Assembly (NCBI RefSeq): GCF_000012345.1
Contig: NC_007205.1
Location: forward strand, 270,001 to 302,000
Reading direction: 5' to 3'
Length of the DNA: 32,000 nucleotides
DNA from: Candidatus Pelagibacter ubique HTCC1062
Lineage (GTDB): Bacteria; Pseudomonadota; Alphaproteobacteria; Pelagibacterales; Pelagibacteraceae
Below, one piece after another: positions 2,349 through 31,570 of this stretch. The notes under the pieces are model-generated. The model saw only the letters and a list, made by a program, of their open reading frames with translations, was not told the DNA's origin and did not search any database. Position 1 is the stretch's first letter, and every line of letters starts with the position of its first letter. The position numbers and the translations under genes are program-made.

Positions 2349-2357
2349 AGATTATTT

Positions 2358-3893: not shown

Positions 3894-3914
3894 TACTCTC
3901 TCCTTTTTTTATTA

Positions 3915-4976: not shown

Positions 4977-5136
4977 AATTACTCTCTATTTTTTTTGTTT
5001 GTTAATTTTTTTAATAACAAACCCTATCCAATATTCAGGTCAACTAAGAGTCAACTGCACAAAAAAGTGTCCAAAAAGTTAACAAAATACAACTTATGGT
5101 TGGTTGTTCATTTTTAATTATGTCCTAAAATAAGAA

Positions 5137-6219: not shown

Positions 6220-6221
6220 AA

Positions 6222-7439: not shown

Positions 7440-7459
7440 AATTAAAAATTATAAAGAAA

Positions 7460-8413: not shown

Positions 8414-8415
8414 AG

Positions 8416-12441: not shown

Positions 12442-12446
12442 TAGTC

Positions 12447-13610
12447 TTAGCCTAGCATTTTTTTGATATTTTCCAATGCGTTAGATATGTTGTCTTGTGA
12501 AGCTGCATAGCTAAATCTTACGTAATCTTGGCAAGTTTTACCAAAAGCTGTTCCTGGAACTATTGCTACCCCTGCTTCATGCATACATTTTTTTGCAAAT
12601 TCTGAACCATTCATTCCTGTTCCAATAACTTTAGGAAATGCATAAAAGGCTCCTCCTGGTAAACTGCATTCCACACCTGGTAAACTATTTAAACCTTCGT
12701 GAATCAATTTCCTTCTTTGATCAAATTTTACCATCATTTCATGGATTGCATCATCTGGTCCGTCTAAAGCTGCAATTCCTGCAAATTGTGACGGAGCATT
12801 AACACATGAAACACTATTAATAATTAGTTTATTTACATGTGGTATTAATTCTTCTGGCCACACACTCCATCCCATTCTCCATCCAGTCATTGCATAAGCT
12901 TTACTCCAACCATCTAAAACAATTAATCTATCTTGCAGATCAGGGTAATTAAAAAATGTTGGCATTTCTTTTCCATCATAAATTTGTCTACTATAAATTT
13001 CATCACTTAGGATTGCTACATGAGGATGTTTTTTTAACCCTTCTGCTAAAACATCTATTGCAGATTTTTCAACAAAACTTCCCGTTGGATTATTCGGGTT
13101 AATTAATATTAACAATCTAGTTTTATCTGTAATTAAAGATAGAATTTTTTCTGGATCAAATTTTAAATCTTTATCTTCTGTTAAGTCATAAGGGACTGGA
13201 GTTGAACCTGTGTAATTAATCATTGATTCATATATTGGGAATGCTGGTGTTGGATGTATAATTTCCGCACCTGGCTCCCCAAAACATTGTATCGCATAAT
13301 ACATTGTTGGTTTCCCACCTGGCATTATCAATACTCTTTCAGGGTCAATATCCTTATTGTAAAGTTTTTTAATTTTTCTAGTAACAGCTTGTCTGCACTC
13401 TAAAATTCCATTTGATAAAACATATCCATGATGACCTTCATCTAATGCTTTTTTTGCAGCATCTACTACGTGTTGGGGTGTCTTAAAATCAGGCTGACCT
13501 AAACCTAAGTGGATCATTGGTTTGCCTTGTGCTTCTAATTTTTTTGCTTCAGCTAAAACACTAAATGCAGATTCTGTTCCTAGTCTTTGTAAATTTTTTG
13601 CTAATTTCAT
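12447..13610 (-). CDS. Class I/II pyridoxal-phosphate aminotransferase (aspartate/alanine-glyoxylate type)
   Basis: 387 aa with NPNNPTG and the PLP-lysine context SKAYAMTGWRMGW. Lies 5 nt upstream of glcD. Confidence 0.85.
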   Translation of the reverse strand: MKLAKNLQRLGTESAFSVLAEAKKLEAQGKPMIHLGLGQPDFKTPQHVVDAAKKALDEGHHGYVLSNGILECRQAVTRKIKKLYNKDIDPERVLIMPGGKPTMYYAIQCFGEPGAEIIHPTPAFPIYESMINYTGSTPVPYDLTEDKDLKFDPEKILSLITDKTRLLILINPNNPTGSFVEKSAIDVLAEGLKKHPHVAILSDEIYSRQIYDGKEMPTFFNYPDLQDRLIVLDGWSKAYAMTGWRMGWSVWPEELIPHVNKLIINSVSCVNAPSQFAGIAALDGPDDAIHEMMVKFDQRRKLIHEGLNSLPGVECSLPGGAFYAFPKVIGTGMNGSEFAKKCMHEAGVAIVPGTAFGKTCQDYVRFSYAASQDNISNALENIKKMLG

Positions 13611-13683
13611 AATAATTAAATTCTAGTATTAATAATTTATAATTTAATTTATTTTTTATATATATAATTTTGATAAGTAAAAA

Positions 13684-14835
13684 CTATTTTCTATAAATTA
13701 ATTTTGACGCGTCTAATTCTTTCAAGGTCTTACAACCCATTAATACCATATTTCTATTGATTTCATCATGCATGTTTTGCAATAGACGTTCCACACCTGG
13801 TTGACCCCCAGCACTTAAAGCAAATAAAAACATTTTCCCAAAGCTGCATGCTGTTGCACCAGCTGCTAAAGCTTTTAAAACATGAGTTCCACGTCTTACT
13901 CCGCCATCTAAAATAATTTCTAATTTATCCCCTACAGCTTCTCTAATTGCATTAACTTGATCAAAGGGTGATCTTGAGCCATCTAATTGTCTGCCCCCAT
14001 GATTTGAAATCATTATTGCTGTACAGCCAATATCTATTGCTCTTTTTGCATCTTCAATTGACATCACACCTTTAAGTGCAAATGGGCCATTCCATCTTTT
14101 TACACAATATTCTGCATCCTTCCAATTCATGGCCGGATCATATTGTTCATTAATATATTCAATGACTGATTTTGAAATATTGGTTCCTTTATCTGTTTTA
14201 TTTTTAACATTGGATAATTCAAATTTTTTATGAGTAAAATAATTAAATACCCATTCAGGTCGCATGGCAAAACTCATTAAGCTTTGAAGTGTCAATTTTG
14301 GAGGAGTAGTAAAACCAGTTCTGTGATCTCTTTCTCTGTTTCCAGCAACTAATGTATCAACTGTCAAACACATACCATTAAAACCAGACACTCGACATCT
14401 ATCTATTAAGTCATCGGTAATTGATTGATCTTTGTGAACATATAATTGAAATAACTTTGGTCCATTTGAAATATCAGCAACTTCTTCAATAGTATTATTG
14501 GCCATTGTAGACATACTATAAAAGGTCCCAAATTTTTCAGCAGCTCTTGCTGAGGCTTTGTCACCTTCATGATGGTAGAGTCTTTGCATTGCAGTTGGTG
14601 AAAGAAAGATTGGCATATCAATTTTTTTTCCAAAAACAGTCGTTGAAAGATCTGGTTTACCAACACTAGCAAGAATATTTGGAATTAAATCACAATCATC
14701 GAAAGAATCTGTATTTCTTTTTAAGGTTTTTTCATCATCTGCACCGCCATCAATGTAGTGAAAAATTGGAGAAGGTAATCGTTTTTTTGCTAATTTTCTA
14801 AAGTCATTAAAATTATAGCAGTCTTTTAGGTTCAT
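13684..14835 (-). CDS. FMN-dependent alpha-hydroxyacid oxidase/dehydrogenase (LldD / glycolate oxidase family)
   Basis: 383 aa with family motif SNHGGRQLDG and a TIM-barrel FMN-binding C-terminal region GVRRGTHVLKALAAGA. Confidence 0.85.
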   Translation of the reverse strand: MNLKDCYNFNDFRKLAKKRLPSPIFHYIDGGADDEKTLKRNTDSFDDCDLIPNILASVGKPDLSTTVFGKKIDMPIFLSPTAMQRLYHHEGDKASARAAEKFGTFYSMSTMANNTIEEVADISNGPKLFQLYVHKDQSITDDLIDRCRVSGFNGMCLTVDTLVAGNRERDHRTGFTTPPKLTLQSLMSFAMRPEWVFNYFTHKKFELSNVKNKTDKGTNISKSVIEYINEQYDPAMNWKDAEYCVKRWNGPFALKGVMSIEDAKRAIDIGCTAIMISNHGGRQLDGSRSPFDQVNAIREAVGDKLEIILDGGVRRGTHVLKALAAGATACSFGKMFLFALSAGGQPGVERLLQNMHDEINRNMVLMGCKTLKELDASKLIYRK

Positions 14836-14843
14836 TGATTAAG

Positions 14844-15353
14844 TTAAAATGTTTTAAAAAAGTTAAACATATAACTATTAGCACCAGGATTTTTTGTTCC
14901 TAAGCTTGCATTAGAAAGATGATTATAAGAAAAACCAAGTTGACTATTACTAACAAAGTCTACTGAAATTTGTAATTCACTTTTAAATTCTAGAATATGA
15001 CCAAGATCTTTACCATCACCCTTACTGTATAATCCTGGTGCAAAGCTTGGTGTAAAATTAATTTTACCTAGCTTATATTGTGCCTGAACACCTGTATAAA
15101 TATATGCAGCAGAGTCTGCAGTCACTAATGCACCTGTTATGGGAGAAATATTACCTAAAAAAGTATCTCTATTTAAATCCTCATTTTGATGTTGAAATCC
15201 AATTAATGTTGATTTTTTACCAGTATCACTGAAATCAAACATTCCAGAATAAACATTAAATTTAGAACTATTTTCTTCAGCATAAACAACTGAAGATAAT
15301 AGGCTGAAGAAAATGATAAAAATAAATCTTGATATCAACTTGTAATGTTTCAT
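14844..15353 (-). CDS. Outer-membrane acyloxyacyl hydrolase, lipid A 3-O-deacylase (PagL)-like
   Basis: 169 aa with signal peptide ending VYA, beta-barrel-like alternating pattern and terminal Phe. The C-terminal motif NHLSNASLGTKNPGANS resembles the PagL catalytic H-x-S-N-A-G-L...N-x-G region. Confidence 0.55.
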   Translation of the reverse strand: MKHYKLISRFIFIIFFSLLSSVVYAEENSSKFNVYSGMFDFSDTGKKSTLIGFQHQNEDLNRDTFLGNISPITGALVTADSAAYIYTGVQAQYKLGKINFTPSFAPGLYSKGDGKDLGHILEFKSELQISVDFVSNSQLGFSYNHLSNASLGTKNPGANSYMFNFFKTF

Positions 15354-15734
15354 TTAAATTTTGTTATTTTTATTTAATATTATTTTTTTATATATTATTG
15401 CACCGCCAAACAAAAATAACAATAATGGTAATAACCATAAAACATATGTGTTTTTGTTTAATTGGGGGTCAAAAATTACCCAGTCACCATATTTTTCTCT
15501 TAAAAATTGATATATTTGTTTTTCTTTTAATCCTTCATTAATTTTTCTATCAACAATTAATTTGATGCTAGAAGCAAACTCTGATTCAGAATCGTATACT
15601 GACTGACCTTGACAAATTAAACAACGAACATTCTTTAAAATTTTATTCTTTAAAATATCATTTGTTTCAGCTGATTTTAACTCTGAAAAGTTTGCAACTA
15701 CAAATAGGATTATAAATATTTTTAATACTTTCAT
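15354..15734 (-). CDS. ccmH: Cytochrome c-type biogenesis protein CcmH
   Basis: 126 aa with a signal sequence, the motif VRCLICQGQSVYDSESEFA (LRCxxCQxQS type) and a C-terminal TM helix. Confidence 0.8.
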   Translation of the reverse strand: MKVLKIFIILFVVANFSELKSAETNDILKNKILKNVRCLICQGQSVYDSESEFASSIKLIVDRKINEGLKEKQIYQFLREKYGDWVIFDPQLNKNTYVLWLLPLLLFLFGGAIIYKKIILNKNNKI

Positions 15735-16252
15735 TTAATAATTAATTTAATTTCACTAACAATTTCTTGATTGATTGGACCAACAAATTTTTTGATTATA
15801 TCTTTATTTTTATCTATTAAAAAAGTTTCTGGAACTCCATAAGCTCCAAATTCAACTCCTAGAGTTCCATCTTTATCAATTAAAATTCTTGAATATGGAT
15901 TGCCAAGGTCATTGATAAATTTTTTTGCATTATTAAAATTGTCCCTATAATTTAATCCAATTAGTTTAATTGATTGGTTTTTACTTAGTTGCATTAATAA
16001 GGGGTGTTCTGTTCTGCAAGGTACACACCAGGAAGCCCAAATATTTACAATATAAAAGATGTTCTCTTCAAAAATTTTCTCTGAATTTACATAATTGTTT
16101 GAATAAAAGTCTTTTGCTTTAAAGGTTGGGATATTTTTTTTTTCATTAACCTTGGGTGTGTAGTTATTTGGAGTATTTAATCCTTTATAAAAAATAACAA
16201 AACAAAAGCTTAAAAAAATAACTACAACAAATAAGCTAAACTTATTTTTCAT
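15731..16252 (-). CDS. ccmG: Thiol:disulfide interchange protein CcmG/DsbE
   Basis: 173 aa with an N-terminal TM anchor, thioredoxin motif WASWCVPCRTEHP and GVPETFLID. Confidence 0.85.
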   Translation of the reverse strand: MKNKFSLFVVVIFLSFCFVIFYKGLNTPNNYTPKVNEKKNIPTFKAKDFYSNNYVNSEKIFEENIFYIVNIWASWCVPCRTEHPLLMQLSKNQSIKLIGLNYRDNFNNAKKFINDLGNPYSRILIDKDGTLGVEFGAYGVPETFLIDKNKDIIKKFVGPINQEIVSEIKLIIK

Positions 16253-18126
16253 ATCTCCTTTTTAAATAAACTCATTAATCCACCAAGACTTAACAATAAA
16301 ACTGATACCCATATCCAAACCATAAATGGTTTTATTTGATATCTAATATTAAAATATTCATTACCCTTTACAAGATTCATTACTAAAAACTTATCCTCTA
16401 ATAGTGTTGTTCTTATATCTGCTTCACTAGTAATAATTATAGGCTGATTATAAATTCTAATCTCAGGTTTTAATTCTATAGTTTTGCCATTTTTGTCTTT
16501 TATTTCAAAAGAGGCAATGATGGAGTTAAAATTACTTTCTTTTCTTTCTTCTACCTTTTTAAAAAAAATTTCACCTTTATTATAATCATATCTTTCACCA
16601 ATTTTTATGTTGGTTATAATTTCTGAGGATAAAATACTATTAAATAGAATGCTTAATATTAATAAACTAAAACCAAAGTGTGAAACAGTTTGAGAAATAT
16701 TATTAAATTTTTTAATAAATAATTCTTTTAAAGTGGTAAAGAAAAGAAAAAAAGCAGCTGAAATTAAAACTGTATAAAAAAGTAAGTCAGCAGTTAAATT
16801 TTTTATAATAAAAAAGGTTAACATTACTGAAATTATAAATGTGATAATTAGTGAGTTCTTATTTTCAATTTTTGATTTAATCCATTTAAGTCTTGGTCCA
16901 AGAGACATGAATAATAGAAATGGTATTAAAAAAGGAACAATTAATTTATGATAAAAAGGAGGCCCTACTGATATTTTTTCACTAGATATTACATCTAGAA
17001 AAATTGGATATACCGTACCTATTAAAACAACAGCTAAAAAATACATCATAAACCAATTGTTTATTAAGATAGAAGTTTCTCTACTAAGCCAAAAAAAATT
17101 ATTTGAGCTTTTATTATTTTCTTTGTGAAATATAAAAAATATTCCTAACGATAAGACAATTAGTGCAAATAAAAATATTAATATAAAAATACCTCTTGCA
17201 GGGTCATTAGCAAATGTATGTACAGAATTTAATATTCCGGATCTTACTAAAAAAGTTCCACACATACTTAGGGTAAATGTTGTAATAGACAGTATAACCA
17301 CCCAAGATGTTAGTGATGCTCTTCTTTCTAACACTACAATGCAATGCAATAATGCAGTTAGTGTTAGCCATGGCATTAAAGAAACATTTTCAACTGGGTC
17401 CCAAAACCAAAAACCTCCCCATCCTAGTTCGTAATATGCCCAAATTGATCCAAGCATAATTCCAATAGTTAGAAAAATCCAAGAAACTAAAACCCATTTT
17501 TTAATATGCTGTCCCCATTCTTTGGTGACATAATTTTGTGTAACTGCGGCAAGGGATGATGAAAATATTATAGAGGTACCAACATAACCTAAATATAAAA
17601 TTGGAGGATGAATTGCTAAAGCTGGATCTTGTAAAATTGGGTTAAGACCAAGACCTTCATTAGGAATTGGAAATAAATAATTAAAAGGATTAGATGTTAT
17701 TAATACAAATAAGAAAAACCCGATAATTATTATTTGCTGAAATAATAAAGTTAAAATTCTATATTTTTTAGGCTGCTCTCTTGATTTAATTAAAAACAAA
17801 AAAATAAATAAAGTTAATACTAATAACCATAATAACAAACTTCCTTCATGGTTTCCCCAAGTTCCTGAGATTTTATAGAATAATGGTTTGGTTGTGTGAG
17901 AATTATTAAAAACAGTCTCATTACTAAAGTCTGAGTTTATAAAAGATACAATCAAGCTCAAAAAACTCACAATTACAAAAACTAACTGTAGAAATGATAG
18001 AGATAATATATTTTGGTTAATCTGCTTATTAGTTTTATTGAAGTCTTTAATTGAAACTCCACAAAGCAATACCGAAAGTAACAACCCTAAAATTAAAGAA
18101 TAATAACCTATCTGATTAGCTAGCAA
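16249..18126 (-). CDS. ccmF: Cytochrome c heme lyase subunit CcmF
   Basis: 625-aa polytopic membrane protein with WWD motif WGGFWFWDPVEN. The only start available after the ccmE stop is the TTG at 18126. Confidence 0.9.
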   Translation of the reverse strand: MLANQIGYYSLILGLLLSVLLCGVSIKDFNKTNKQINQNILSLSFLQLVFVIVSFLSLIVSFINSDFSNETVFNNSHTTKPLFYKISGTWGNHEGSLLLWLLVLTLFIFLFLIKSREQPKKYRILTLLFQQIIIIGFFLFVLITSNPFNYLFPIPNEGLGLNPILQDPALAIHPPILYLGYVGTSIIFSSSLAAVTQNYVTKEWGQHIKKWVLVSWIFLTIGIMLGSIWAYYELGWGGFWFWDPVENVSLMPWLTLTALLHCIVVLERRASLTSWVVILSITTFTLSMCGTFLVRSGILNSVHTFANDPARGIFILIFLFALIVLSLGIFFIFHKENNKSSNNFFWLSRETSILINNWFMMYFLAVVLIGTVYPIFLDVISSEKISVGPPFYHKLIVPFLIPFLLFMSLGPRLKWIKSKIENKNSLIITFIISVMLTFFIIKNLTADLLFYTVLISAAFFLFFTTLKELFIKKFNNISQTVSHFGFSLLILSILFNSILSSEIITNIKIGERYDYNKGEIFFKKVEERKESNFNSIIASFEIKDKNGKTIELKPEIRIYNQPIIITSEADIRTTLLEDKFLVMNLVKGNEYFNIRYQIKPFMVWIWVSVLLLSLGGLMSLFKKEI

Positions 18127-18127
18127 T

Positions 18128-18547
18128 TTATTTATCTCCTAAGGCTTCTTTAACTTCTGGGGGCATATAATTTTCATCATGTTTTGCTAAAATTTTAGTA
18201 GCTGTAAAATAATTCTTATCTTTTAAAAAACCTTCAGCAACCACTCCTTTTCCTTCAGCAAATAAATTAGGGACTGCCCCTGTATAGACAATATTAATTT
18301 CATTTTTAAAGTCAGTAATGACAAAATTAACTTTATCAGAATCTATAAAAATCGATTGTTCTTTAACCATCCCACCCACTCTTATTTTTTTTTTATTTAA
18401 TTCTATTAAAGATTTTATTTCAGACGGAGACTGAAAATATACAACGTTTTCTTTTAATGATTGTAAAACTAAAAAAACTGTTAAAATTACTGAGGCTAAG
18501 ATTAAAGCTAAGAATATAAATCGTAATTTAACCTTTTTACCATACAT
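18128..18547 (-). CDS. ccmE: Heme chaperone CcmE
   Basis: 139 aa with an N-terminal TM anchor, IRVGGMV, and the heme-binding His context [13 protein letters not shown]. Confidence 0.9.
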
Positions 18548-18557
18548 GGTTTATTAG

Positions 18558-18785
18558 TTAAATATTTGATGTATTGGATAATATTTCTCTATTAATATTT
18601 TGTGATCTTGCAGCTCTAGCTTTCTCAACATTTAGAGAACCAAATTTAGAAGCAAATCTTTTTTGCTCTTTTGAAAGTTGTAATTTAGTTACAAAGTACA
18701 GGGCTGTAAAACTAATCAATGTAAATGAAAAAGCTGACCAAACGTAAGCTCCATATCCATTCATTGAAATTATTTCATTTATCAT
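18558..18785 (-). CDS. ccmD: Heme exporter protein CcmD (probable)
   Basis: 75 aa with a single TM helix. NGYGAYVWSAFSFTLISFTALY is typical of CcmD. The gene sits between ccmC and ccmE and has a 4-nt overlap with ccmC. Confidence 0.6.
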   Translation of the reverse strand: MINEIISMNGYGAYVWSAFSFTLISFTALYFVTKLQLSKEQKRFASKFGSLNVEKARAARSQNINREILSNTSNI

Positions 18786-19492
18786 AATCTATCTAATCCT
18801 TTATTTTTAACTTTTATCAGTTCGGTATTATATTTCATCAAAAAAATGAGTAATGAAAAAAGAGCAAATGCCGCAGTCATAATACCCAATGGGACTAACA
18901 TTGATGGGTGAATTGCTGTGTTGGTTGATAAAATATTAATTGAAGCTGGTTGATGTAACGTGTTCCACCAGTCTACAGAAAATTTAATGATGGGAACATT
19001 TACCACTCCTAAAATTGCAATTAAAGACGTAACCTTTATTACTTGTTCTTTGTCCTCATAAATTCTCCAAGCCAATAAATACATTCCATAAAACAAAGCT
19101 AAAATTAACATAGAAGTTATTCTTGCATCCCAAGCCCACCAAGTACCCCAAGTTGGTTTTCCCCAAATTGATCCTGTTCCTAATGCTATAATATTAAAAA
19201 TGAATCCAGAAGGTGCTAAACTTTTAGCAATTAATGCAAAATTTTTATTTTTAAAAACAAAACTTCCAACAGACAAAAAAGCTAAACTTGTAAATATTCC
19301 AAGTGATATCCATGCAGCTGGCACATGAACATACATAATTCTTACTGCATCACTTTGTTTATAATCTTCAGGTGAAAGTATAAGCGCTTCTGTTAAACCA
19401 ATTGTTAGGACAATAATAAATAAAAATAGAACATACTTTGGTGCTTTAGAGGTTATTGCAAAAATTTTATTAGGTTCAAAATATTTAAACAT
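18782..19492 (-). CDS. ccmC: Heme exporter protein CcmC
   Basis: 236-aa multi-TM protein with WWD motif WGKPTWGTWWAWDARITS. Confidence 0.9.
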   Translation of the reverse strand: MFKYFEPNKIFAITSKAPKYVLFLFIIVLTIGLTEALILSPEDYKQSDAVRIMYVHVPAAWISLGIFTSLAFLSVGSFVFKNKNFALIAKSLAPSGFIFNIIALGTGSIWGKPTWGTWWAWDARITSMLILALFYGMYLLAWRIYEDKEQVIKVTSLIAILGVVNVPIIKFSVDWWNTLHQPASINILSTNTAIHPSMLVPLGIMTAAFALFSLLIFLMKYNTELIKVKNKGLDRL

Positions 19493-19549
19493 TTTTAAAT
19501 TATATATATTAAAAAAAAGATAATTTAATTTTTTTTATGGAAGATCATC

Positions 19550-19610
19550 CTGATCAAGAATGCAGAGGGAGTCAATAATGATAAAAACGTTATTTAACAC
19601 TCTTGATCAG
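19550..19610. other. Candidate structured element: long hairpin in the largest non-coding gap
   Basis: Perfect 10-bp inverted repeat CTGATCAAGA (19550-19559) / TCTTGATCAG (19601-19610). Inside it is an inner helix, 19571-19578 pairing with 19590-19598. Strand and function are unknown. Confidence 0.3.
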
Positions 19611-19674
19611 AACATGAATATAGATAGCAACTATATATGTCGAAGATTTGAATTAATTGTGTTTGAAAAAAGAA

Positions 19675-19995
19675 TTAATTAGAGGGCTTAAAGTAGCTAG
19701 AGCCTCTTTTACCAGAAAAAATCTCTTCAATTAAAGGATGTTTAATTGGATCTTCTGAATCGTCCATTAATAGATTTTGTTCTGAAACATATGCTTCATA
19801 TGTAATTTCATCATTTTCGGCTAACAAATGATAAAAAGGCTGATCTTTTCTAGGACGAACATTCTTTGGAATAGATTGATACCATTCTTCAGAATTATTA
19901 AATTCGAAATCAACATCATAAATTACACCTCTGAATTCAAAGTGTTTATGTTTTACAATGTCTCCTATTGAAAATTTTGCTTTTTGAATTGCCAT
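19675..19995 (-). CDS. hspQ: Heat-shock protein HspQ (YccV-type hemimethylated-DNA-binding domain)
   Basis: 106 aa. KFSIGDIVKHKHFEFRGVIYDVD...PFYHLLAEND...YVSEQNL matches the YccV/HspQ pattern. Confidence 0.8.
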   Translation of the reverse strand: MAIQKAKFSIGDIVKHKHFEFRGVIYDVDFEFNNSEEWYQSIPKNVRPRKDQPFYHLLAENDEITYEAYVSEQNLLMDDSEDPIKHPLIEEIFSGKRGSSYFKPSN

Positions 19996-20003
19996 TACTA
20001 TTA

Positions 20004-20030
20004 ATATGGGGGTTTAAGAACAAAAATCAA
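20004..20030 (-). promoter_or_regulatory. Candidate sigma-32 (RpoH)-type promoter for hspQ
   Basis: The minus strand reads TTGATT (20030-20025), a 13-nt spacer, then CCCCATAT (20011-20004). The E. coli sigma-32 consensus is TTGAA-N13-17-CCCCATNT. The C5 run stands out in an otherwise AT-only spacer. Only 8 nt separate the -10 box from the ATG. Confidence 0.35.
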
Positions 20031-20073
20031 TAAAAAACATTTATATTTTTTTTATTATGTTAATATCTGTCAA

Positions 20074-20625
20074 GTGAATAAATCTTTTCTTAAATTTGCA
20101 ACTGACTTTGGGCCTTTAGCCATTTTTTTTTATTATTATTATAATAATGATAAGAATCTAGCAGTTGCGATTCCTCCACTCATAGTTGCAACATTAACTG
20201 CGCTAGCTGTTGTTTGGTTTTTTGAAAAAAAAATACCTATGATGCCATTAATAAGTGGTATCTTAATTACATTTTTTGGGGGTCTAACAATTTATTTTGA
20301 TGATCCAGTTTTTATTTATGTAAAGCCAACGATCATTAATATTTTATTTGCCCTTGCTTTATATTTTGGAAAATATTTTACAAAAGAACCTGTCCTTAAA
20401 AAGATTATGGGTAAGTCAATTGCTCTAACTGATATGGGTTGGGAATTATTAAACAAAAGATGGATGTACTTTTTCTTCTTCCTTGCAATCCTTAATGAAT
20501 GTGTCTGGAGAACGCAAACAGAAGAGTTTTGGGTTAATTTTAAGGTATGGGGCATGTTACCAATAACCCTTGTCTTTACAGCATTTCAAATATCATTGAT
20601 TAATAAATACAAGCTTGATGAATAG
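20074..20625 (+). CDS. yciB: Intracellular septation protein A (YciB/IspZ family)
   Basis: 183-aa, 5-TM protein that aligns by eye with E. coli YciB (FGGLTIYF..., FWVNFKVWG...). It uses a GTG start at 20074, and there is no in-frame ATG nearby. Confidence 0.8.
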   Translation: MNKSFLKFATDFGPLAIFFYYYYNNDKNLAVAIPPLIVATLTALAVVWFFEKKIPMMPLISGILITFFGGLTIYFDDPVFIYVKPTIINILFALALYFGKYFTKEPVLKKIMGKSIALTDMGWELLNKRWMYFFFFLAILNECVWRTQTEEFWVNFKVWGMLPITLVFTAFQISLINKYKLDE

Positions 20626-20962
20626 AAACTTAAAGCTAGTTGTAAATAATCCTCACAAACAAATAGAAGAAAGACAATTTTTTGAAAAAAATGAACTTAA
20701 AATCATTTTAGATCTATATGCAAAAATGGTCTCTGAAGGATCATGGAAAGACTATGGTCTAAACATTTCTAACAGGCAGGTTAGTTTTAGTGTCTTTAAA
20801 AATGCAGCAGAGAATGCTTTGTATAAAATTTGTAAAAACTTTAAACCTAGCAATAAAAATTTAAAGTATTTAATTACAGATTCTAATGGGAAAGTTTTAA
20901 AAAATTCCTTTGATCTAGAAATTTTACTTAAAAATACTAATTGGAAGAACCTTAAGAAATAA
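20615..20962 (+). CDS. DUF2794-like small alphaproteobacterial protein
   Basis: 115 aa. FEKNELKIILDLYAKMVSEGSWKDYGL resembles the DUF2794 core (F.r.EL..IL..Y...V..GeWrDYa) as I remember it. It has an 11-nt overlap with yciB. Confidence 0.5.
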   Translation: MMNRNLKLVVNNPHKQIEERQFFEKNELKIILDLYAKMVSEGSWKDYGLNISNRQVSFSVFKNAAENALYKICKNFKPSNKNLKYLITDSNGKVLKNSFDLEILLKNTNWKNLKK

Positions 20963-25194: not shown

Positions 25195-25653
25195 ATGGAA
25201 GCTCTAAAAAATTGGATGAAAGATGCTGCTAACATTTTATTTGATGATAGCAAAAATGATCTGAGGTCTTTACCAAGATCTGTTAGATTACAAATTTTAT
25301 TAGTTCTGAGTTTCGTTTGGACAACTGTTTTTAGTTTATACATATTTTCTTATACAACTTTTGCATTTGGTTGGGCCGGTTTATACGTTGCTCATATTGG
25401 ATTGATATTTGCAGTTTACATGACATTCAAACATTTTCATAAAGCAGAGGCGCAATCTAGCAGTGTATTCAAAACTAAAAACTTTGATCCATTTAAGATT
25501 ATGGTTATTGTTTTTGTAATTGTATTCATCTTTGTATTTTCTAAGGGAATAGAAATTTTAACAAGTCCAAACCCTAGCTCTTATTCAATTCCATATGATG
25601 GACCAGTAAAATCTGTGTTTGAAAAGTGGCTACCATTTAGTAAGGATAAGTAA
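25195..25653 (+). CDS. Hypothetical membrane protein (about 3 TM)
   Basis: 152-aa ORF with three hydrophobic segments. I recognise no family. Its stop overlaps the next gene's start (TAATG), which argues for real translation. Confidence 0.5.
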   Translation: MEALKNWMKDAANILFDDSKNDLRSLPRSVRLQILLVLSFVWTTVFSLYIFSYTTFAFGWAGLYVAHIGLIFAVYMTFKHFHKAEAQSSSVFKTKNFDPFKIMVIVFVIVFIFVFSKGIEILTSPNPSSYSIPYDGPVKSVFEKWLPFSKDK

Positions 25654-26033
25654 TGGATAAAATAGCAAAAATTTTACAGCTTGCACTAATGTGCATTATT
25701 TTAGTGAGCACTGTAATTGCTGTTGGTATGGAAATTAATAATATGTTTCTAAATCAATCTGTAATGCTAGCAGATTTACTTTTAATGTTTCTTTATTTAG
25801 AAGTCTTAGCAATGGTTCGTGTTTTTTGGAATCAACAATCAATCAGTATAACTTTACCTCTTTTAATTGCCATCACTGCTCTCGCACGATTTATTATATT
25901 ACAAGGAAAAGAAATGGATCCATCAGCATTAGTCTATGAAGCTATAGCTATAGTTCTAATTGCATCTGCAATAGTTATTTTAAGATTAAGACACAGTGAT
26001 AAATTGGGTCTAAAGAAAAGAAAATCTAAATAG
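25653..26033 (+). CDS. PsiE-like (phosphate-starvation-inducible E family) membrane protein
   Basis: 126 aa with 4 TM helices. FLYLEVLAMVRVFW...LLIAITALARFIIL aligns by eye with E. coli PsiE YFLYFEFIALIVKYF...YIGITAIVRLIIV. Confidence 0.5.
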   Translation: MDKIAKILQLALMCIILVSTVIAVGMEINNMFLNQSVMLADLLLMFLYLEVLAMVRVFWNQQSISITLPLLIAITALARFIILQGKEMDPSALVYEAIAIVLIASAIVILRLRHSDKLGLKKRKSK

Positions 26034-26039: not shown

Positions 26040-27182
26040 ATGATTTTTGAAGCTTCAAGGGCTAAAGCCGTTGATAAATTAAATACTTTTGTTGAACAAA
26101 ATCTTTCAGATTATTCAAAACTAAGAAATTTTGATTTTGGGCCTAGTAATAGATCTAATGTTTCTTGTTTATCCCCCTATATAACTCACGGAATAATTAA
26201 TGAATTAGAAGTAATTAATAAATCTCTTAAAAAGTTTTCATTTGCAAATAATGAAAAATTTATTCAGGAAGTTCTTTGGCATGTTTATTGGAAAGGTTGG
26301 CTAGAACTAAGACCTGATGTTTGGTCAGATTACTTAATAGAATTAGATAAAATTAAAAAAGAATTTAAAAACAATCAAAGTTATTTGGATGCAACAGAAG
26401 GAAAAACAAATGTAGATTGTTTTAATCAATGGGTAAGTGAACTTAAAGAAAACAATTATCTTCATAACCACACAAGAATGTGGTTTGCTAGCATTTGGAT
26501 TTTTACACTAGAATTACCATGGCAGTTGGGAGCTGAGTTTTTTATGCAACATCTATATGATGGGGATGCTGCATCAAATACCCTTGGTTGGAGATGGGTT
26601 GCTGGCATTCAAACTCAAGGCAAGCATTACCTTGCAAGTGAATGGAATATAAATAAATTTACAAATAATAGATTTAAAAACATAAAACTTAATGAAAATG
26701 CCAAACCTATATCCAATGATAAGATATATTCTGTTATTAGCAAAGGCTTTAAAAATTCTGAGATTTTGGAAGATAAAACTTTATTAATATTTGAAAATAA
26801 TATGACATTTGAATTTTCTGATTTTAAAGAACATAAGTTTAAAAAAATTTTGTTAGTCTCAAATAAAACAGATAGAACTATCAAATTAAGTGAAAAGGTG
26901 TTGAAATTTAAAGCAAATCTTTTAGAGGATCAAAAAATAAGATTGAAAGAAAAATCAATAAATTGTGAAACTATTAACACTAATGATTTAAAAAATATTA
27001 CCGAAGAAGTTTATGCGCTTTATCCAACCGTTGGTGAAAATTTAAATTTTATTCAAAATAATCAATTAAAAAATATAAGATTTTTATATAGAAAGTTGGA
27101 TCAGTTTTCTTGGCAATATTGTAATAAAGGTTTTTTTAATTTTAAAAACTATATTCCAAAAATTATTGCTAATTTTAATTAA
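26040..27182 (+). CDS. Cryptochrome/photolyase-superfamily protein with inverted domain order (NewPHL-like)
   Basis: 380 aa. The FAD-binding photolyase-domain motifs sit at the N-terminus: SCLSPYITHGII, LWHVYWKGW, NHTRMWFASIW, YDGDAASNTLGWRWVAG. About 170 further residues of beta/alpha character follow. Only 6 nt separate the start from the upstream gene, so no N-terminal alpha/beta domain can be hidden. Confidence 0.7.
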   Translation: MIFEASRAKAVDKLNTFVEQNLSDYSKLRNFDFGPSNRSNVSCLSPYITHGIINELEVINKSLKKFSFANNEKFIQEVLWHVYWKGWLELRPDVWSDYLIELDKIKKEFKNNQSYLDATEGKTNVDCFNQWVSELKENNYLHNHTRMWFASIWIFTLELPWQLGAEFFMQHLYDGDAASNTLGWRWVAGIQTQGKHYLASEWNINKFTNNRFKNIKLNENAKPISNDKIYSVISKGFKNSEILEDKTLLIFENNMTFEFSDFKEHKFKKILLVSNKTDRTIKLSEKVLKFKANLLEDQKIRLKEKSINCETINTNDLKNITEEVYALYPTVGENLNFIQNNQLKNIRFLYRKLDQFSWQYCNKGFFNFKNYIPKIIANFN

Positions 27183-27400
27183 AACCAACGTATCATTCCA
27201 ATTATACCTGCTGTTGCATAAAAAAATTGCAACACAAGTATTCCCTTGTGACCTCCTCTATATGCCCAGATACCAATTAAAATGGCAGACAACAGCAACA
27301 AACAAAATCCTAAAAACTCTATTCCAATGTTTAAGGCTACAAACATAGAATAAAGGATTGCCGTAATAACCCCTGCCCATTCAAAAAATTTATTATTCAT
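27179..27400 (-). CDS. Small 3-TM membrane protein resembling a single PnuC-type repeat
   Basis: 73 aa. The pattern EWAGVITAILYSMFVALN...LLSAILIGIWAY...LVLQFFYATAGIIGMIRW resembles the PnuC pattern E-W-x...L-N ... Y ... L-Q-x-F-Y...I-x-G...W. It has a 4-nt ATGA overlap with the upstream GATase gene. Confidence 0.45.
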   Translation of the reverse strand: MNNKFFEWAGVITAILYSMFVALNIGIEFLGFCLLLLSAILIGIWAYRGGHKGILVLQFFYATAGIIGMIRWF

Positions 27401-28116
27401 AATAGCCTTTTAAAATTCTCATAAAGTATCTTAGAATAATTATTCATATCAGGCATATTATTTTTTGCAGCTTGATCAAATTTATCTAAAGCTCCCTCAC
27501 CTAATTGACTTTCAAGAGCTTTTTTATATTCAGGCACACACCCCCACTCATTAACTGTTGTGTCTTTAATTTCTATATGAAATTGAATTGCATATGCGTG
27601 ATTTTGGTATTTGAAAATTTGATATTTAGTAATAGGAGATGATGCTAGTAAAGTTACATCCTTATTATTATCTATTCCTTGCACTTCATATGAATGCCAC
27701 TGCAAACTTTTAATTTGATCTGGAAATTTTGAAAATAAAATATCCTCCTTTTTTTCTTTAGTAAAATTTATATCCATTATTCCAATTTCTGCTGGATTTG
27801 ATTTAACTACCTTACCACCTATTACCTCACCTAATAACTGACACCCAAGACAAAAACCTAAATAAGGTTTTTTTAAATTAACAACAAATTCTTTAATTGC
27901 TTTTTTTTCTTCAATTAGCCATGGATATTCTTGTTCCATAAAAGTATCCATTGGACCACCCATACAAAACATTCCATCAAATTTTCTTAGATCACTTGGG
28001 ATTTTTTCACCTTCATCTAGCTCTATAGTGGTTAAGTTAAAACCATCAGCTAACATTAAATCTTTGATATAGCCTGGGTCTTCAATCTTTATATGCTGTA
28101 AGACAATTATGTTCAT
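27397..28116 (-). CDS. Stand-alone class I glutamine amidotransferase (GuaA-N-like)
   Basis: 239 aa with nucleophile elbow YLGFCLGCQLL and His-x-Glu in AIQFHIEI. Confidence 0.8.
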   Translation of the reverse strand: MNIIVLQHIKIEDPGYIKDLMLADGFNLTTIELDEGEKIPSDLRKFDGMFCMGGPMDTFMEQEYPWLIEEKKAIKEFVVNLKKPYLGFCLGCQLLGEVIGGKVVKSNPAEIGIMDINFTKEKKEDILFSKFPDQIKSLQWHSYEVQGIDNNKDVTLLASSPITKYQIFKYQNHAYAIQFHIEIKDTTVNEWGCVPEYKKALESQLGEGALDKFDQAAKNNMPDMNNYSKILYENFKRLL

Positions 28117-28159
28117 TACTATATTTATAGCATTTTAAAATAGTCTACTGAACAATACT

Positions 28160-28768
28160 TTAAGCTAAAAAGGTTTTTATTCCGTCTAAAATATACTGAA
28201 CACTTAATCCAACTAGAATAATTGCTATTACTCTTGAAATTACACTAATAACTTTTTTATTTATTATCTGAGAAAATTTTGAAGCAGTAAAAAAAAATAT
28301 AAAAGTTAAAAGCAAAACTGAAGCTAAAGCAATCATTCCAACAGATTGGTTTGTAAAATTACTTCCCATATCTGAAACAGAAACAATAACAGATGTGATT
28401 GCAGCTGGTCCTGCTATAATGGGTGTTGCTAAAGGAAATACACTTACATTTTCAGAATTAAAATCAATGTCATCTTCTTTTCGTTGTTGTCTTTTATCAA
28501 ACAACATTTCCATGGAAATTATTAATAAAATGATGCCTCCACCAATTGTAAATGCTGGAAAAGATATATTCAAATAATTTAATAAAGTGCTTCCAAGAAA
28601 TGCAAAGAATAGCAATATGATTGATGCAATTATTGTTGCACTCAATGCAGTTTTAACTCTTTGTTGGCTGCTCATATTTTGAGTTACTGCTAAGAATAAT
28701 GGTGTATTTCCTAGTGGATCAATTACAATAAAATATAAAAAGAAAGTTTGAATAAATATTTCAAGCAT
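28160..28768 (-). CDS. MarC family (UPF0056) integral membrane protein
   Basis: 202 aa with 6 TM helices. The N-terminal IVIDPLGNTPLFLA is typical of the MarC family. Confidence 0.8.
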   Translation of the reverse strand: MLEIFIQTFFLYFIVIDPLGNTPLFLAVTQNMSSQQRVKTALSATIIASIILLFFAFLGSTLLNYLNISFPAFTIGGGIILLIISMEMLFDKRQQRKEDDIDFNSENVSVFPLATPIIAGPAAITSVIVSVSDMGSNFTNQSVGMIALASVLLLTFIFFFTASKFSQIINKKVISVISRVIAIILVGLSVQYILDGIKTFLA

Positions 28769-28809
28769 TCACTTTTCTAGCATAGTTACCTGGATAAATT
28801 CAGCAAATA

Positions 28810-29223
28810 TTAAAACAAATAATAAATTAAGACGTACCTACTTACTTTTCCAATTGCCACTAAAATAATAAAATCTAAAAATCTAACTCTTAATAAACCT
28901 GCAACTAAAGTCAGTGGATCACCTATTATTGGAACCCAAGCAAATAATAATGACCATTTACCAAATTTATTAAACCATTTTGAAGAGCTTTCTATTTGTT
29001 TGTCTTTAAACGGAAACCACTTTTTTGTACTAAGATTTCTTGAATAAAATCCCAAGACCCAGTTAACAACTGATCCCAAAATATTCCCAAAACTAGCAAC
29101 AATTAACAATAATAAACTATCAAAATTTGATGTTGCAATTAATCCTGCCAATGTGAGCTCAGATGAAAATGGTAAAATGGTTGCTGCTAAAAAAGATATA
29201 GCAAATAAAGATAAGTAAATCAC
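28810..29223 (-). CDS. yqaA: YqaA-like (DedA/SNARE-associated superfamily) membrane protein
   Basis: 137 aa that aligns by eye along the full length of E. coli YqaA ([13 protein letters not shown]..., [23 protein letters not shown]). Its GTG start at 29223 overlaps the stop of the upstream small ORF (GTGA). Confidence 0.75.
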
Positions 29224-29342
29224 TTAGAGCACTTTTTGGAGCAATACTTTACCTTATCCCAATTAAGCTTCCACTTCTTACGCCAAACAAAAGGTCTTTT
29301 ACAAACAGGACAAACTTTTGAAGGTAAATTTTCTTTTTTCAT
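29220..29342 (-). CDS. 40-aa zinc-ribbon protein, DUF2256-like (absent from the ORF track)
   Basis: The minus-strand ATG at 29342 gives [40 protein letters not shown], ending in a TGA at 29222-29220. It has a four-Cys CxxC...CxxxC pattern. The start overlaps the photolyase-related stop (TAATG) and the stop overlaps the yqaA start, so it fills the gap exactly. Confidence 0.7.
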
Positions 29343-30832
29343 TAAATAGTATTTTGTTTAATAAATTTATCAGCTTCAGATAAAATCATTTTCTTTCTTT
29401 CATCTTTCATTTTATCAAAAACATAAACCATCATAGACAATCTAGGGTTCTTTAAAAAAAATTTTCTATTTTTATTTATAAACCTCCAATAAAGACCATC
29501 CATCGTATTACACCATTCCCCTTTTTTAAAATCCATCATTTTCATAAAATAACTTGATCCACAAATGTATGGTTTCGTTGCAAAAATACCTCCATCACTA
29601 AATAAGCCCATTCCATAAACATTAGGGACCATCACCCAATCAGAAGAATCTACAAACATTTCCATAAACCACTTATAAACAATTGTTGGTTTCACTTCAC
29701 AAAGGTTCATTATATTTGATAAAATCATTAACCTTTCTATATGATGAGACCAGCCATGATTAACGGCATTTTTAATTGCATGATCCAGTGGAGGCAAACC
29801 TGTTGTGCCTTCATACCAAGACTTTTTCATTTTTCTTTCATGGTTGAAAAAATTTTTTGTTTCCATTTCATCAGAGTAACCTTGATAAATTCCACGCATG
29901 AACTCTCTCCAGCCTATTATTTGACGAATATAACCTTCAAGTGAGTTCATTCTAATTTTGTGTTTTTTATGAAATTCTAAAATTTTTTGAATGATAATTT
30001 CAGGGGTTATCAATCCTAAATTAATATACGGGCTTAATGCGCTATGAAATAAAATATTGTCTTTTTGATTAACAGCATCTTCATAATCACCAAATAAATT
30101 TGATTTTTCTTTAATAAAAAAATCTAAAAGTTTGACCACATCATTGTATTCTGTTGCTAACCAAAAATCATTAGTGCTACCAGGATGATCTTTAAATAGT
30201 TTTTCAATAATTGGTTTTAATTTTTTAGTATGATTAGTTTCGTTAATTTTTGGAAATTTTGGTATTGATATGTCTTTTGGTAATTTATTTCTGTTATCTT
30301 CATCAAAACTCCATTTGCCTCCAATAGGGTTTCCATCTGCTCCCATTAATATTCCAGATTTTTTACGAACTTCTTTGTAAAATGTTGCCATAAAAGGTTT
30401 TTTTGATTTTACTAAATAATTTTTAAACTCATCTCTTGAGTTTAAAAACATTGGAGTTTGAACAATATTCCAGTTAATTTTTTCTTTTTTTAAGAATTGT
30501 GAAATTTTCTTTTCAAAAGATTTATCCTCAACCTCAAAACTTGAAATTTCAGTAATTTTTTTTTGATTAATGATAATTTTTAATTTTTTAAAATAAGTAT
30601 CTTTAAAACCTTTGTCCTCAATTTTAGAATATTCAAGTTTGTATTTATTTGCTCTAAGCATATCTGCATAAGACCTCATAGAAGAGAGAAATAGCAGTAT
30701 CTTTTGCTTATGATGCTTTTCATAAGTACATAGTTCATAGTCTTCTGCCATGTAAAAAGAGTGGTCCTTTTTGAAGCGGTCTACGTATTTTAATGGAAAT
30801 AATTGATTGCCAAGTATAAAAAACAATTTCAT
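29342..30832 (-). CDS. Cryptochrome/photolyase-related protein, COG3046 / FeS-BCP (bacterial 6-4 photolyase, CryB/PhrB) family
   Basis: 496 aa. The N-terminus FILGNQLF...[19 protein letters not shown] is typical of COG3046. The C-terminal half has [34 protein letters not shown] and [10 protein letters not shown]. Confidence 0.85.
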
Positions 30833-30859
30833 AGTTAAATATAACTAAATAAAAATTAT

Positions 30860-31570
30860 ATGTCAGAAAAATATCTTATTTTTGGTGCGACAGGTTCTGT
30901 GGGTTCCAGCTTAGCTGAACAATTGAAAAATTCAGGAAATGATATTCATCTAATAGCAAGAAATGAAAATGAAGTTAAAACTATTGCAGAAAAATTAGGC
31001 TGCACTTATACGGTTGCTGACGTTTTAGAAGAAGGATTTATAGAAAAAGTAAAATCAGACATTAGTGAAATTAAGGGTATCGCTTACTGTGTGGGATCTA
31101 TTGATTTAAAACCATTAAGGATGGTTACAGAAGCAGATATGAATAAATGTATGAAACTAAACCTTTATTCAGCTATTGAAGCAATAAAAGGATTTCAAGA
31201 AAGTTTAAAAAAGAACAAAGGCTCAGTTGTTTTATTTTCAACTGTTGCTGCTCAAAGAGGTTTTACTAATCACACAATTATTGCTTCTGCTAAAGCTGCA
31301 GTTGAGGGACTAACTGTTACACTAGCTGCTGAGTTTGCTCCACATATTAGAGTGAATTGTATTGCACCCAGTTTATCAAAATCTAAAATTGCAGAACCAA
31401 TGTTAAAAAATCCTGCAATTGCAGAAGGAATTGCTAAAGCACATCCTCTTAAAAGATTGGGTGAAGGAAAAGATTCTGCAGCGCTTGCAAAATTTTTAAT
31501 TACTGAAGAGAGTTCTTGGATTACTGGACAGATAATAGCTGTTGATGGTGGTAGATCAAAACTTTCTTAA
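30860..31570 (+). CDS. Short-chain dehydrogenase/reductase family protein (atypical active site)
   Basis: 236 aa with cofactor motif GATGSVGS, NLYSA and FSTVAA. Where YxxxK is expected, the sequence reads IIASAK. Confidence 0.8.
   Translation: MSEKYLIFGATGSVGSSLAEQLKNSGNDIHLIARNENEVKTIAEKLGCTYTVADVLEEGFIEKVKSDISEIKGIAYCVGSIDLKPLRMVTEADMNKCMKLNLYSAIEAIKGFQESLKKNKGSVVLFSTVAAQRGFTNHTIIASAKAAVEGLTVTLAAEFAPHIRVNCIAPSLSKSKIAEPMLKNPAIAEGIAKAHPLKRLGEGKDSAALAKFLITEESSWITGQIIAVDGGRSKLS

Follow-up and report, generated by a model that had tools for sequence, protein, structure and literature searches.

An intact NewPHL/SPL-class photolyase gene near a PhrB-type photolyase gene in Candidatus Pelagibacter ubique HTCC1062

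The NewPHL class of photolyases was described by Emmerich et al. (2020, PMC7736829), and is the same class as subgroup A of the SPL proteins reported by Xu et al. (2021, PMC8476157). The two characterised members, DsNewPHL and MmNewPHL, bind FAD only, photoreduce it to FADH-, and repair cyclobutane pyrimidine dimers (CPDs) in single-stranded but not in double-stranded DNA (PMC7736829). The class was described as an alternative to DASH cryptochromes in many bacteria (PMC7736829), the latter having the same proposed niche, namely CPD repair in single-stranded DNA; genomes with NewPHL usually lack DASH. [quoted passage not shown] Pelagibacter is unmentioned in the main texts of both papers, and a literature search on the photolyase complement of SAR11 returned nothing specific.

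Here, we analyzed a window of 32,000 nucleotides from Candidatus Pelagibacter ubique HTCC1062 (the whole stretch of DNA under study), in which an earlier note, written from the sequence alone, had assigned one gene to the NewPHL class. The assignment was supported by a full-length alignment with DsNewPHL, by identical functional residues, and by the Trp + GFF signature. The protein is thus of a kind already described, being a clear and intact member of the NewPHL/SPL small photolyases. A protein search found an exact match to a Ca. Pelagibacter protein, for which the public records give the names 'FAD-binding domain-containing protein' or 'DNA photolyase'; a more precise name would be NewPHL/SPL-class CPD photolyase.

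Domain order and comparison with described photolyases

The gene is located at positions 26040..27182 on the forward strand and encodes 380 aa followed by a stop codon; the ORF call and the alignment with DsNewPHL indicate that it is complete. An in-frame stop precedes its ATG with no other start codon in between, so no upstream extension of the ORF is possible, and the preceding PsiE-family gene ends at 26033, leaving a gap of 6 nt. Both observations bear out the earlier argument that the missing N-terminal domain is not an annotation artefact. [quoted passage not shown] The four FAD-domain hallmarks that the note had listed were all found: SCLSPYITHGII at residues 42-53, LWHVYWKGW at residues 79-87, NHTRMWFASIW at residues 143-153 and DGDAASNTLGWRWVAG at residues 174-189. 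The NCBIfam class I models aligned residues 3-197 with model positions 201-396 of 472, and a phmmer search of the PDB aligned residues 8-197 with chain residues 205-395 of 1DNP; no family model in Pfam or NCBIfam matched residues ~200-380.

From these profile matches and the helices, which extend to residue 207 in the predicted structure, we delimited the catalytic all-helical FAD-binding domain at 26040..26660 (+, residues 1-207). It is followed by an interdomain linker at 26661..26777 (+, residues 208-246), which has no regular secondary structure and is confidently modelled (DSSP, pLDDT), and by the Z-domain, an ordered five-stranded alpha/beta lobe in the AlphaFold2 models and the fold search, at 26778..27179 (+, residues 247-380).

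DsNewPHL (Dinoroseobacter shibae Dshi_1389, UniProt A8LJA9) was retrieved via a residue-number fingerprint, a protein search and a cluster look-up, and was recognised as the 405-aa sequence P0433 of D. shibae DFL 12 from the source name and from agreement with 24 of the 25 residue numbers given in the literature. BLASTP aligned residues 3-378 of the SAR11 protein with residues 7-397 of DsNewPHL (34% identity, E = 4e-85), with an identity of 50% in the catalytic domain, 21% in the linker and 20% in the Z-domain. The order FAD domain, linker, Z-domain is the same in DsNewPHL, MmNewPHL and the SAR11 protein, the last being 25 aa shorter than DsNewPHL, at 380 aa, and very AT-rich. All functional residues named for DsNewPHL are identical in the SAR11 protein, among them E81, W84, W99, N151, W169, W192 and W194. 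The two proteins are further alike in their two-Trp chain, in the Trp + GFF motif, in the lack of Fe-S cysteines, and in co-occurring with a bacterial (6-4) photolyase; unlike that of DsNewPHL, the SAR11 gene is syntenic and convergent with a PhrB-type gene free of Fe-S ligands. Every feature by which the NewPHL class can be recognised at the sequence level is found in the SAR11 protein.

The protein scored well under the cut-offs of the other classes. For class I, it reached 76 bits with NF007955 (cut-off 506) and 72 bits with TIGR03556 (cut-off 885), and for DASH cryptochromes (TIGR02765) 54.6 bits against 317, with the FAD domain alone aligning. The match to the FeS-BCP, or bacterial (6-4), class was E = 0.01 against 4DJA, without PF04244. 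Homology to class I enzymes (E. coli Phr, 1DNP; Synechococcus elongatus, 1TEZ/1OWL) covers the catalytic helical domain (E = 1e-15), in which the CPD-binding and core FAD-binding residues are shared, whereas the N-terminal alpha/beta antenna domain is lacking, an extra C-terminal alpha/beta domain is present, and nothing in the SAR11 protein matches the final ~70 residues of the canonical helical domain. DASH proteins differ from the SAR11 protein in their canonical order of domains and their MTHF antenna.

These partial matches also bear on the possibility that the gene is a truncated and decaying remnant of a two-domain photolyase, which has lost its N-terminal domain and retains a meaningless C-terminal tail. 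Coverage of only positions 1-126 of FAD_binding_7, the class I score of 76 bits far under 506, and a G+C content that drops to 22.5% across the Z-domain DNA would be consistent with such decay. However, an architecture of 370-430 aa is kept in hundreds of 50%-identity clusters aligned end to end, the C-terminal half is modelled with pLDDT >92 and carries an almost invariant motif, the catalytic residues are invariant in the family, and intact copies are found in dozens of SAR11 species genomes among the matches listed. Since length, motifs and fold are conserved family-wide, we rejected a pseudogene or truncated remnant of ordinary photolyases, which the earlier note had named as an outcome that would refute its reading, as extremely improbable. 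A truncated duplicate of the neighbouring photolyase was likewise rejected, because the identity of only 23% over 140 aa is not that of a recent partial duplication.

Active site and electron path

The CPD-pocket residues E274, W277, N341, M345 and W384 of the E. coli enzyme (Ec) correspond to E77, W80, N143, M147 and W186 in the SAR11 protein, all five being kept, as are the core FAD contacts (Ec R344, D372, D374, N378 and G381, corresponding to R146, D174, D176, N180 and G183). Both sets of positions are invariant or nearly so among 138 family members. In (6-4) active sites, the Ec N341 and Ec M345 positions are both occupied by His; these positions are Asn and Met in the 380-aa protein. Several other FAD-contact positions are unlike those of E. 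coli (R236 to C43, R278 to H81, W271 to F74, W338 to Y140 and R342 to H144). Because H144 is invariant in the family, these changes look like family traits rather than decay.

With respect to the Trp triad, the proximal and medial residues are kept as W184 and W161, whereas the distal Trp of class I (Ec W306) is replaced by F109, a position occupied by L, F or a gap across the family. The same incomplete pattern was reported in the NewPHL and SPL descriptions (PMC7736829, PMC8476157). W95 is the equivalent of the alternative W99 of DsNewPHL. Cys residues are found at positions 43, 127, 309 and 361 only. SPL subgroups C and Ac (e.g. RfSPL of Rhodococcus fascians) belong to the same family, share the active site and also lack the N-terminal domain; they differ by four conserved cysteines with a [4Fe-4S] cluster, which are absent as a set from the SAR11 protein and its 137 closest cluster representatives. 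The AfPhrB-like four-Cys arrangement was not found in the SAR11 protein, and an Fe-S cluster was rejected, as the family alignment contains no conserved four-Cys set and only the C127 column is common (72%).

In the most likely mechanism, the N-terminal helical domain would bind FAD, and the Z-domain would pack against it, shielding the flavin. FADH- excited by blue or near-UV light would then give an electron to a CPD held in the pocket that the W80/W186 wedge makes with E77, N143 and M147; the ring would split, and the electron would return to the flavin. The flavin may be held in the reduced state by photoreduction via a shortened Trp chain from W184 to W161, with W95 as a possible alternative third member. 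By analogy with the two characterised orthologs, the substrate is likely a CPD in single-stranded DNA, and an antenna chromophore is likely absent.

Flavin photochemistry might instead serve signalling, the protein being a cryptochrome-like photoreceptor or regulator and not a DNA repair enzyme. RfSPL, the only SPL studied in vivo, was weakly active in repair and its knockout had a slight phenotype, and a cryptochrome role was raised for C-terminal extensions by the SPL authors (PMC8476157); photoreduction in NewPHL was slower than that of a class II photolyase by a factor of 18-30 (PMC7736829), and the SAR11 gene lies downstream of a gene of a stress-related family (PsiE). However, the residues that contact the CPD are strictly conserved in the family, whereas NewCRY, a proposed signaller, has lost E274 and N341 (PMC7736829). 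Moreover, two orthologs repair CPDs in vitro, the SAR11 protein has no partner or output domain, and tight linkage connects its gene with one of bona fide repair type. A photoreceptor is accordingly a very unlikely reading, and we consider with good confidence that the product is a functional photolyase of the NewPHL/SPL class, Fe-S-free as in SPL subgroup A.

Predicted structure and relationships of the Z-domain

AlphaFold2 modelled the whole chain with a mean pLDDT of 97 and a pTM of 0.94. The pLDDT of the Z-domain was 92-98 within the full model and 93 when the domain was modelled alone. The segments KTLLIFENN and KKILLVSNK, which the earlier note had quoted as signs of a Rossmann-type lobe, form the beta-strands 247-251 and 269-274 in this model, and residues 200-380 therefore constitute an ordered alpha/beta domain. 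The Rossmann-like character guessed in the note agreed with both the models and the fold search, and disorder of the C-terminal part, its other route to refutation, was contradicted by pLDDT values above 92 in the Z-domain.

The Z-domain signature D354-x3-W358-x5-G364-F365-F366 (sequence DQFSWQYCNKGFF) is located at 27099..27137 (+), as determined from the family consensus and the DsNewPHL register, and W358 and G364-F365-F366 are in register with DsNewPHL. Among 138 members, the G is found in 137, the first F in 119 (with Y in another 18), the second F in 132, and the W in 89 (F in 22 and Y in 18). The family consensus around the signature is RxWDxxxWPHAxKGFFxFKK.

In Foldseek searches, the N-terminal domain retrieved photolyases and cryptochromes only (~220 columns), and class I CPD photolyases were the structures that best matched the N-terminal 220 residues. 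The Z-domain alone gave weak E-values spread over generic Rossmann/HUP folds; the TM-score ranking alone favoured photolyase chains. At the sequence level, no homology of the Z-domain to canonical N-terminal domains was found: its sequence had no match in the PDB, PF00875 and PF04244 matched none of 32 family Z-domains, and hhalign gave a probability of 0.1% against the DPRP domain of the neighbouring PhrB-type protein. The PDB copy that we searched yielded no NewPHL structure. The Z-domain is presumed to form a cap over the FAD site. It may be homologous to the canonical antenna domain and have been displaced, which would favour a domain-swap origin over an 'ancestral minimal photolyase'; the high-confidence model and the likeness of the Z-domain fold to photolyase chains bear on this choice between an ancestral class and a domain rearrangement.

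Gene neighbourhood and distribution in SAR11

Two co-directional genes are located immediately upstream (25195..26033, +), encoding a 152-aa membrane protein without a family match and then the PsiE-family protein. The two overlap by 1 nt, and because of this overlap and the 6-nt gap that follows, the pair and the photolyase gene probably form one transcription unit. At 37-41 of 82 related loci, both are found ahead of the photolyase gene. In promoter and terminator scans, promoter-like sites were fewer than in shuffled sequence.

Downstream, and convergent with the NewPHL gene at a distance of 2.2 kb, lies a gene for a PhrB-type bacterial (6-4) photolyase with DPRP and FAD_binding_7 domains (29342..30832, -). 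Its product matched 4DJA with E = 1e-82 and has none of the four Fe-S ligand cysteines. The two photolyase genes are linked at 65 of 82 loci, usually in the convergent arrangement in SAR11, which fits the reported association with FeS-BCP. A short-chain dehydrogenase/reductase gene (30860..31570, +), divergent from the PhrB-type gene, accompanies the photolyase pair in 56 of 82 loci. The NewPHL and the adjacent Fe-S-free (6-4)-type enzyme would act as a compact, iron-free photoreactivation pair.

The earlier note had placed the class in a few alphaproteobacteria, which understates it: NewPHL was counted in 618 species (PMC7736829), SPL proteins were found in at least 10 phyla or classes (PMC8476157), and we obtained 497 family clusters at 50% identity with E <= 1e-30. 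Nor is the gene an oddity among streamlined oligotrophs, in which the note had called it notable, since it is near-universal in surface SAR11 reference genomes among the matches listed, and occurs not only in dozens of SAR11 species genomes but also in HIMB59, SAR86 and SAR116 among the best 80 loci listed. Among 120 close SAR11 variants, the numbers of variable columns in the two halves of the protein were about equal (34/200 and 28/180), consistent with a functional enzyme. Phage carriage was rejected, as only half-length matches to canonical phage photolyases were obtained. Because SAR11 is enormously abundant and the protein search was filled with near-identical copies (at least 8000 candidates), the SAR11 orthologs may rank with the most numerous NewPHL proteins of surface seawater.

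A further possibility is that NewPHL is the main or only CPD photolyase of SAR11, which either acts on double-stranded DNA in vivo or leaves CPDs to be photorepaired only in transiently single-stranded DNA. No DASH gene was found in the 32-kb window or in 6-10 kb flanks of related loci, and the (6-4)-type partner was the only other photolyase-family gene within the window or within 6 kb at the 82 loci. In addition, the NewPHL and PhrB-type genes make up a conserved island, a minimal set of enzymes would be favoured by genome streamlining, and Mediterranean SAR11 has been reported to be UV-sensitive. [quoted passage not shown] We therefore regard a main or sole role as unlikely. Two more far-reaching readings, one that SAR11 relies on a minimal iron-free island of two genes (NewPHL and the Fe-S-free PhrB-type), without class I, II, III or DASH enzymes elsewhere in the 1.3-Mb genome, and the other that the Z-domain is an antenna-domain homolog, are doubtful. 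If the island reading were true, an enzyme of inverted topology would be the sole CPD photolyase of the most abundant heterotroph of the ocean, and it would either handle duplex DNA in vivo or confine CPD photorepair to transiently single-stranded DNA.

For the NewPHL/SPL-class photolyase described here, its conserved linkage to a (6-4) photolyase free of Fe-S ligands points to a compact photoreactivation module that would spare iron in streamlined plankton. If the SAR11 orthologs are as numerous as they may be, SAR11 would be a good system in which to study the role of photorepair specific for single-stranded DNA.

Domain order and class membership of the NewPHL protein

In the ORF listing of the window, in which each ORF was opened at the first start codon past an in-frame stop, 26040..27182 (+) starts with ATG and encodes 380 aa. 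The frame therefore cannot extend upstream, and a co-directional PsiE-family membrane protein gene (Pfam; 25653..26033) stops 6 nt short of the ATG; as the earlier note had argued, the absence of an N-terminal domain is thus not an annotation artefact. The four sequence motifs quoted there were all found at the positions it gave. The sole Pfam match of the protein was FAD_binding_7 (residues 74–197 against profile positions 1–126 of 203, E = 1e-15); neither PF00875 nor PF04244 matched it, and residues 200–380 gave nothing significant in the Pfam scan. NCBIfam class I models aligned residues 3–197 with model positions 201–396 of 472 (76 bits versus a cut-off of 506), and against E. coli photolyase 1DNP, the solved structure with the best sequence match (E = 1e-15), residues 8–197 were aligned with chain residues 205–395. 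Family and structure searches were concordant on the domain content, placing the FAD domain first with no N-terminal alpha/beta domain. A protein search returned a Candidatus Pelagibacter protein with 100% identity and thousands of near-identical SAR11 copies, annotated as 'FAD-binding domain-containing protein' or 'DNA photolyase'.

In the NewPHL class, the catalytic FAD domain leads without an N-terminal antenna domain, and the C-terminal Z-domain (~150 aa, ordered) contains a GFF motif and a single conserved Trp; members average ~370 aa and show strict conservation of the CPD active site, and the Trp triad comprises the proximal and medial Trp only (Emmerich et al. 2020, PMC7736829). The same class was independently named SPL, with five subgroups, of which C and Ac have four cysteines and an Fe-S cluster (Xu et al. 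2021, PMC8476157). The characterised enzyme DsNewPHL was retrieved by screening representatives against its published residue numbers and using the best-fitting representative as a query for Dinoroseobacter proteins. The top named match fell in a 90% cluster containing D. shibae DFL 12 ABV93131.1 / WP_012178061.1 (P0433, 405 aa), which matched 24 of the 25 published residue/number pairs. The alignment was full-length (residues 7–397 of DsNewPHL against 3–378, 34% identity, E = 4e-85), with identity highest in the catalytic domain (50%) and lower in the linker (21%) and the Z-domain (20%), and DsNewPHL E81, W84, W99, N151, W169, W192 and W194 have identical counterparts in the window protein. 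On sequence grounds, this upholds the NewPHL identity proposed in the earlier note: the protein is a member, itself biochemically uncharacterised, of the known NewPHL/SPL family. G+C content was 22.5% over the Z-domain coding region (26600..27199) versus ~29% over the catalytic domain, consistent with a Z-domain whose amino-acid sequence is less constrained.

The HMMER alignment with 1DNP was used to map residues to E. coli (Ec) photolyase. Five substrate-binding residues (Ec E274, W277, N341, M345 and W384) are kept as E77, W80, N143, M147 and W186, as are the FAD contacts Ec R344, D372, D374, N378 and G381; proximal Ec W382 and medial Ec W359 correspond to W184 and W161, and distal Ec W306 is replaced by F109. 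When 1.84 billion cluster representatives were searched exhaustively, 4436 relatives were returned (497 at E <= 1e-30), mostly 370–430 aa long and many of them aligning with the window protein over the full length. In the family alignment (n = 138), the catalytic residues were invariant or nearly so, and the C-terminal consensus RxWDxxxWPHAxKGFFxFKKxIP has RKLDQFSWQYCNKGFFNFKNYIP as its counterpart in the window protein. No four-Cys set was conserved in this alignment, and the protein therefore belongs, as SPL subgroup A does, to the Fe-S-free type. The conservation data exclude a decayed photolyase remnant. At the position of Ec R342, a DNA-backbone contact in the E. coli enzyme, codon 26469..26471 encodes H144; this His, invariant in 138/138 family members (motif LHNH[AT]RMW), is a family signature and might be related to the preference for ssDNA.

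Best supported is the reading of the protein as a flavin photolyase that acts on cyclobutane pyrimidine dimers. The active site of (6-4) photolyases has His in place of both Ec N341 and Ec M345, and the Asn and Met found here thus favour CPD chemistry over (6-4). The N-terminal helical domain would hold FAD, shielded by the Z-domain; the flavin would be photoreduced via W184 and W161, and electron transfer from FADH- would split a CPD seated in a pocket of the W80/W186 wedge, E77, N143 and M147. A role in signalling is possible but disfavoured by the invariance of the CPD pocket, and CPD repair remains the preferred reading. By analogy with DsNewPHL (A8LJA9, 405 aa) and MmNewPHL, for which FAD as sole chromophore and CPD repair on ssDNA only were shown (PMC7736829), we infer that the window protein would be specific for ssDNA and lack an antenna. 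What the class does physiologically is still under debate, because RfSPL exhibited weak activity and a slight knockout phenotype (PMC8476157).

Predicted fold of the Z-domain

The AlphaFold2 model, computed on the family alignment, had a mean pLDDT of 97, a pTM of 0.94 and no low-confidence segments, and C-terminal disorder was accordingly not seen. Helices extend as far as residue 207, followed by a confidently placed coil linker (208–246) and an alpha/beta domain with strands at 247–251, 269–274, 309–313, 324–327 and 346–349 and helices between them. A Foldseek search of the whole model against the PDB returned only photolyases and cryptochromes over ~220 columns, corresponding to the FAD domain (best match 4U63, E = 3e-6, TMq 0.45); the PDB copy searched gave no full-length structural match and hence no NewPHL structure.

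Modelled alone (pLDDT 93), the Z-domain matched generic Rossmann/HUP-like folds with weak E-values (eIF2B, LDH/MDH, universal stress proteins). The highest TMq values belonged to photolyase chains (class II 4CDN and 8OY6, 0.61; Caulobacter (6-4) photolyase 9HNK, 0.58), and the remaining matches had TMq values of 0.3–0.45. The part superposed in the photolyase chains is presumably the N-terminal antenna domain, because the Z-domain is alpha/beta whereas the photolyase FAD domain is all-helical, in agreement with a previous report in which the Z-domain contact map was likened to an antenna-binding domain (PMC7736829). Sequence and profile comparisons detected no sequence-level relationship to antenna-type domains. 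The model thus supports, at fold level, the earlier suggestion of a Rossmann-type lobe that follows the catalytic domain.

The PhrB-type partner and surrounding genes

Of the species with NewPHL, 96% also have a class I or bacterial (6-4) photolyase and hardly any have DASH (PMC7736829), and SPL and FeS-BCP genes share one operon in some organisms (PMC8476157). In the window, a PhrB-type bacterial (6-4) photolyase gene (29342..30832, –; 496 aa; DPRP and FAD_binding_7, E = 1e-82 to 4DJA) lies downstream, and this convergent arrangement was found at 65/82 loci, including HIMB59 and SAR11 subclades only ~50% identical to the window protein. An SDR gene comes next at 56/82 loci; the island of NewPHL (+), PhrB-type (–) and SDR (+) genes, 26040..31570 in the window, is kept across SAR11 subclades and HIMB59. 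The gap between the photolyase genes, a cassette site with variable content, gains and loses genes: the window has a 73-aa membrane protein, GATase, MarC and a VTT/DedA protein, other genomes have different content or nothing, and the tightest loci (e.g. L012) have ~125 bp between the two stop codons. No third photolyase-family gene was found in the window or at any of the 82 loci. That SAR11 lacks a canonical CPD photolyase and has the NewPHL enzyme as its only one is improbable, our coverage of the genome being that of the window.

None of the four cysteines that ligate [4Fe-4S] in A. fabrum PhrB is present in the PhrB-type protein: C350 is P348, C454 is N442, and C438 and C441 fall inside a 10-residue deletion. 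The four are likewise missing in all 65 SAR11 and HIMB59 homologs compared. Fe-S-free members, e.g. Prochlorococcus PromaPL, are already known and account for ~30% of the PhrB-type class (bioRxiv 10.1101/366252). Judged by their residues, the NewPHL and PhrB-type proteins, both Fe-S-free, are an iron-free photolyase pair.

The 73-aa ORF (27179..27400, –), with two predicted helices, shares 4 nt with the NewPHL reading frame at its stop codon. The ORF has 86–95% identity across SAR11 loci, compared with only ~73% for NewPHL at those loci, and is therefore a real, strongly constrained small gene; its sole family hint was a weak match to the PnuC NMN transporter N-terminus (E = 0.04). A predicted membrane protein of 152 aa (25195..25653, +), without a significant match in Pfam, shares 1 nt with the start of the PsiE-family gene and precedes PsiE and NewPHL at 37/82 loci; the three genes probably form one transcription unit. 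The content of 578..20962 looks ordinary, with ABC-transporter permeases, an MFS transporter, a Zn-dependent alcohol dehydrogenase, an aminotransferase, an FMN-dependent dehydrogenase, a glycolate-oxidase-like set (FAD_binding_4, FAD-oxidase_C, CCG/4Fe-4S), cytochrome c maturation genes (CcmC/E/F/H-like), YccV-like and IspA. No Pfam match at E <= 1e-8 was obtained for two long ORFs in this region, 2358..3893 (–, 511 aa) and 5137..6219 (+, 360 aa).

Distribution of NewPHL genes

Scanning one genome per GTDB species yielded at least 598 relatives. The best 80 of these loci were mostly from distinct Pelagibacteraceae species genomes (50–76% identity), and also included HIMB59, SAR86, other Gammaproteobacteria, Puniceispirillum (SAR116), a Rhodobacteraceae MAG and a Sphingomonadales MAG. 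The view that the class is known from a few alphaproteobacteria was therefore too narrow, and its presence in a streamlined oligotroph, which had been considered notable, is the rule rather than the exception among the genomes returned. The gene type was absent from the phage records searched and was present on several alphaproteobacterial megaplasmids.

No PhrB-type gene lies within 6 kb of NewPHL in SAR86 (L068, L070, L074) or the other marine Gammaproteobacteria (L071, L073, L078). NewPHL proteins from these loci are 47–51% identical to the SAR11 protein, comparable to the identities among divergent SAR11 subclades (50–53%), and Rhodobacterales are more distant (D. shibae, 34%). Because the gammaproteobacterial proteins are as close as divergent SAR11 subclades and closer than Rhodobacterales, these sequence identities suggest that NewPHL was laterally exchanged among streamlined plankton.
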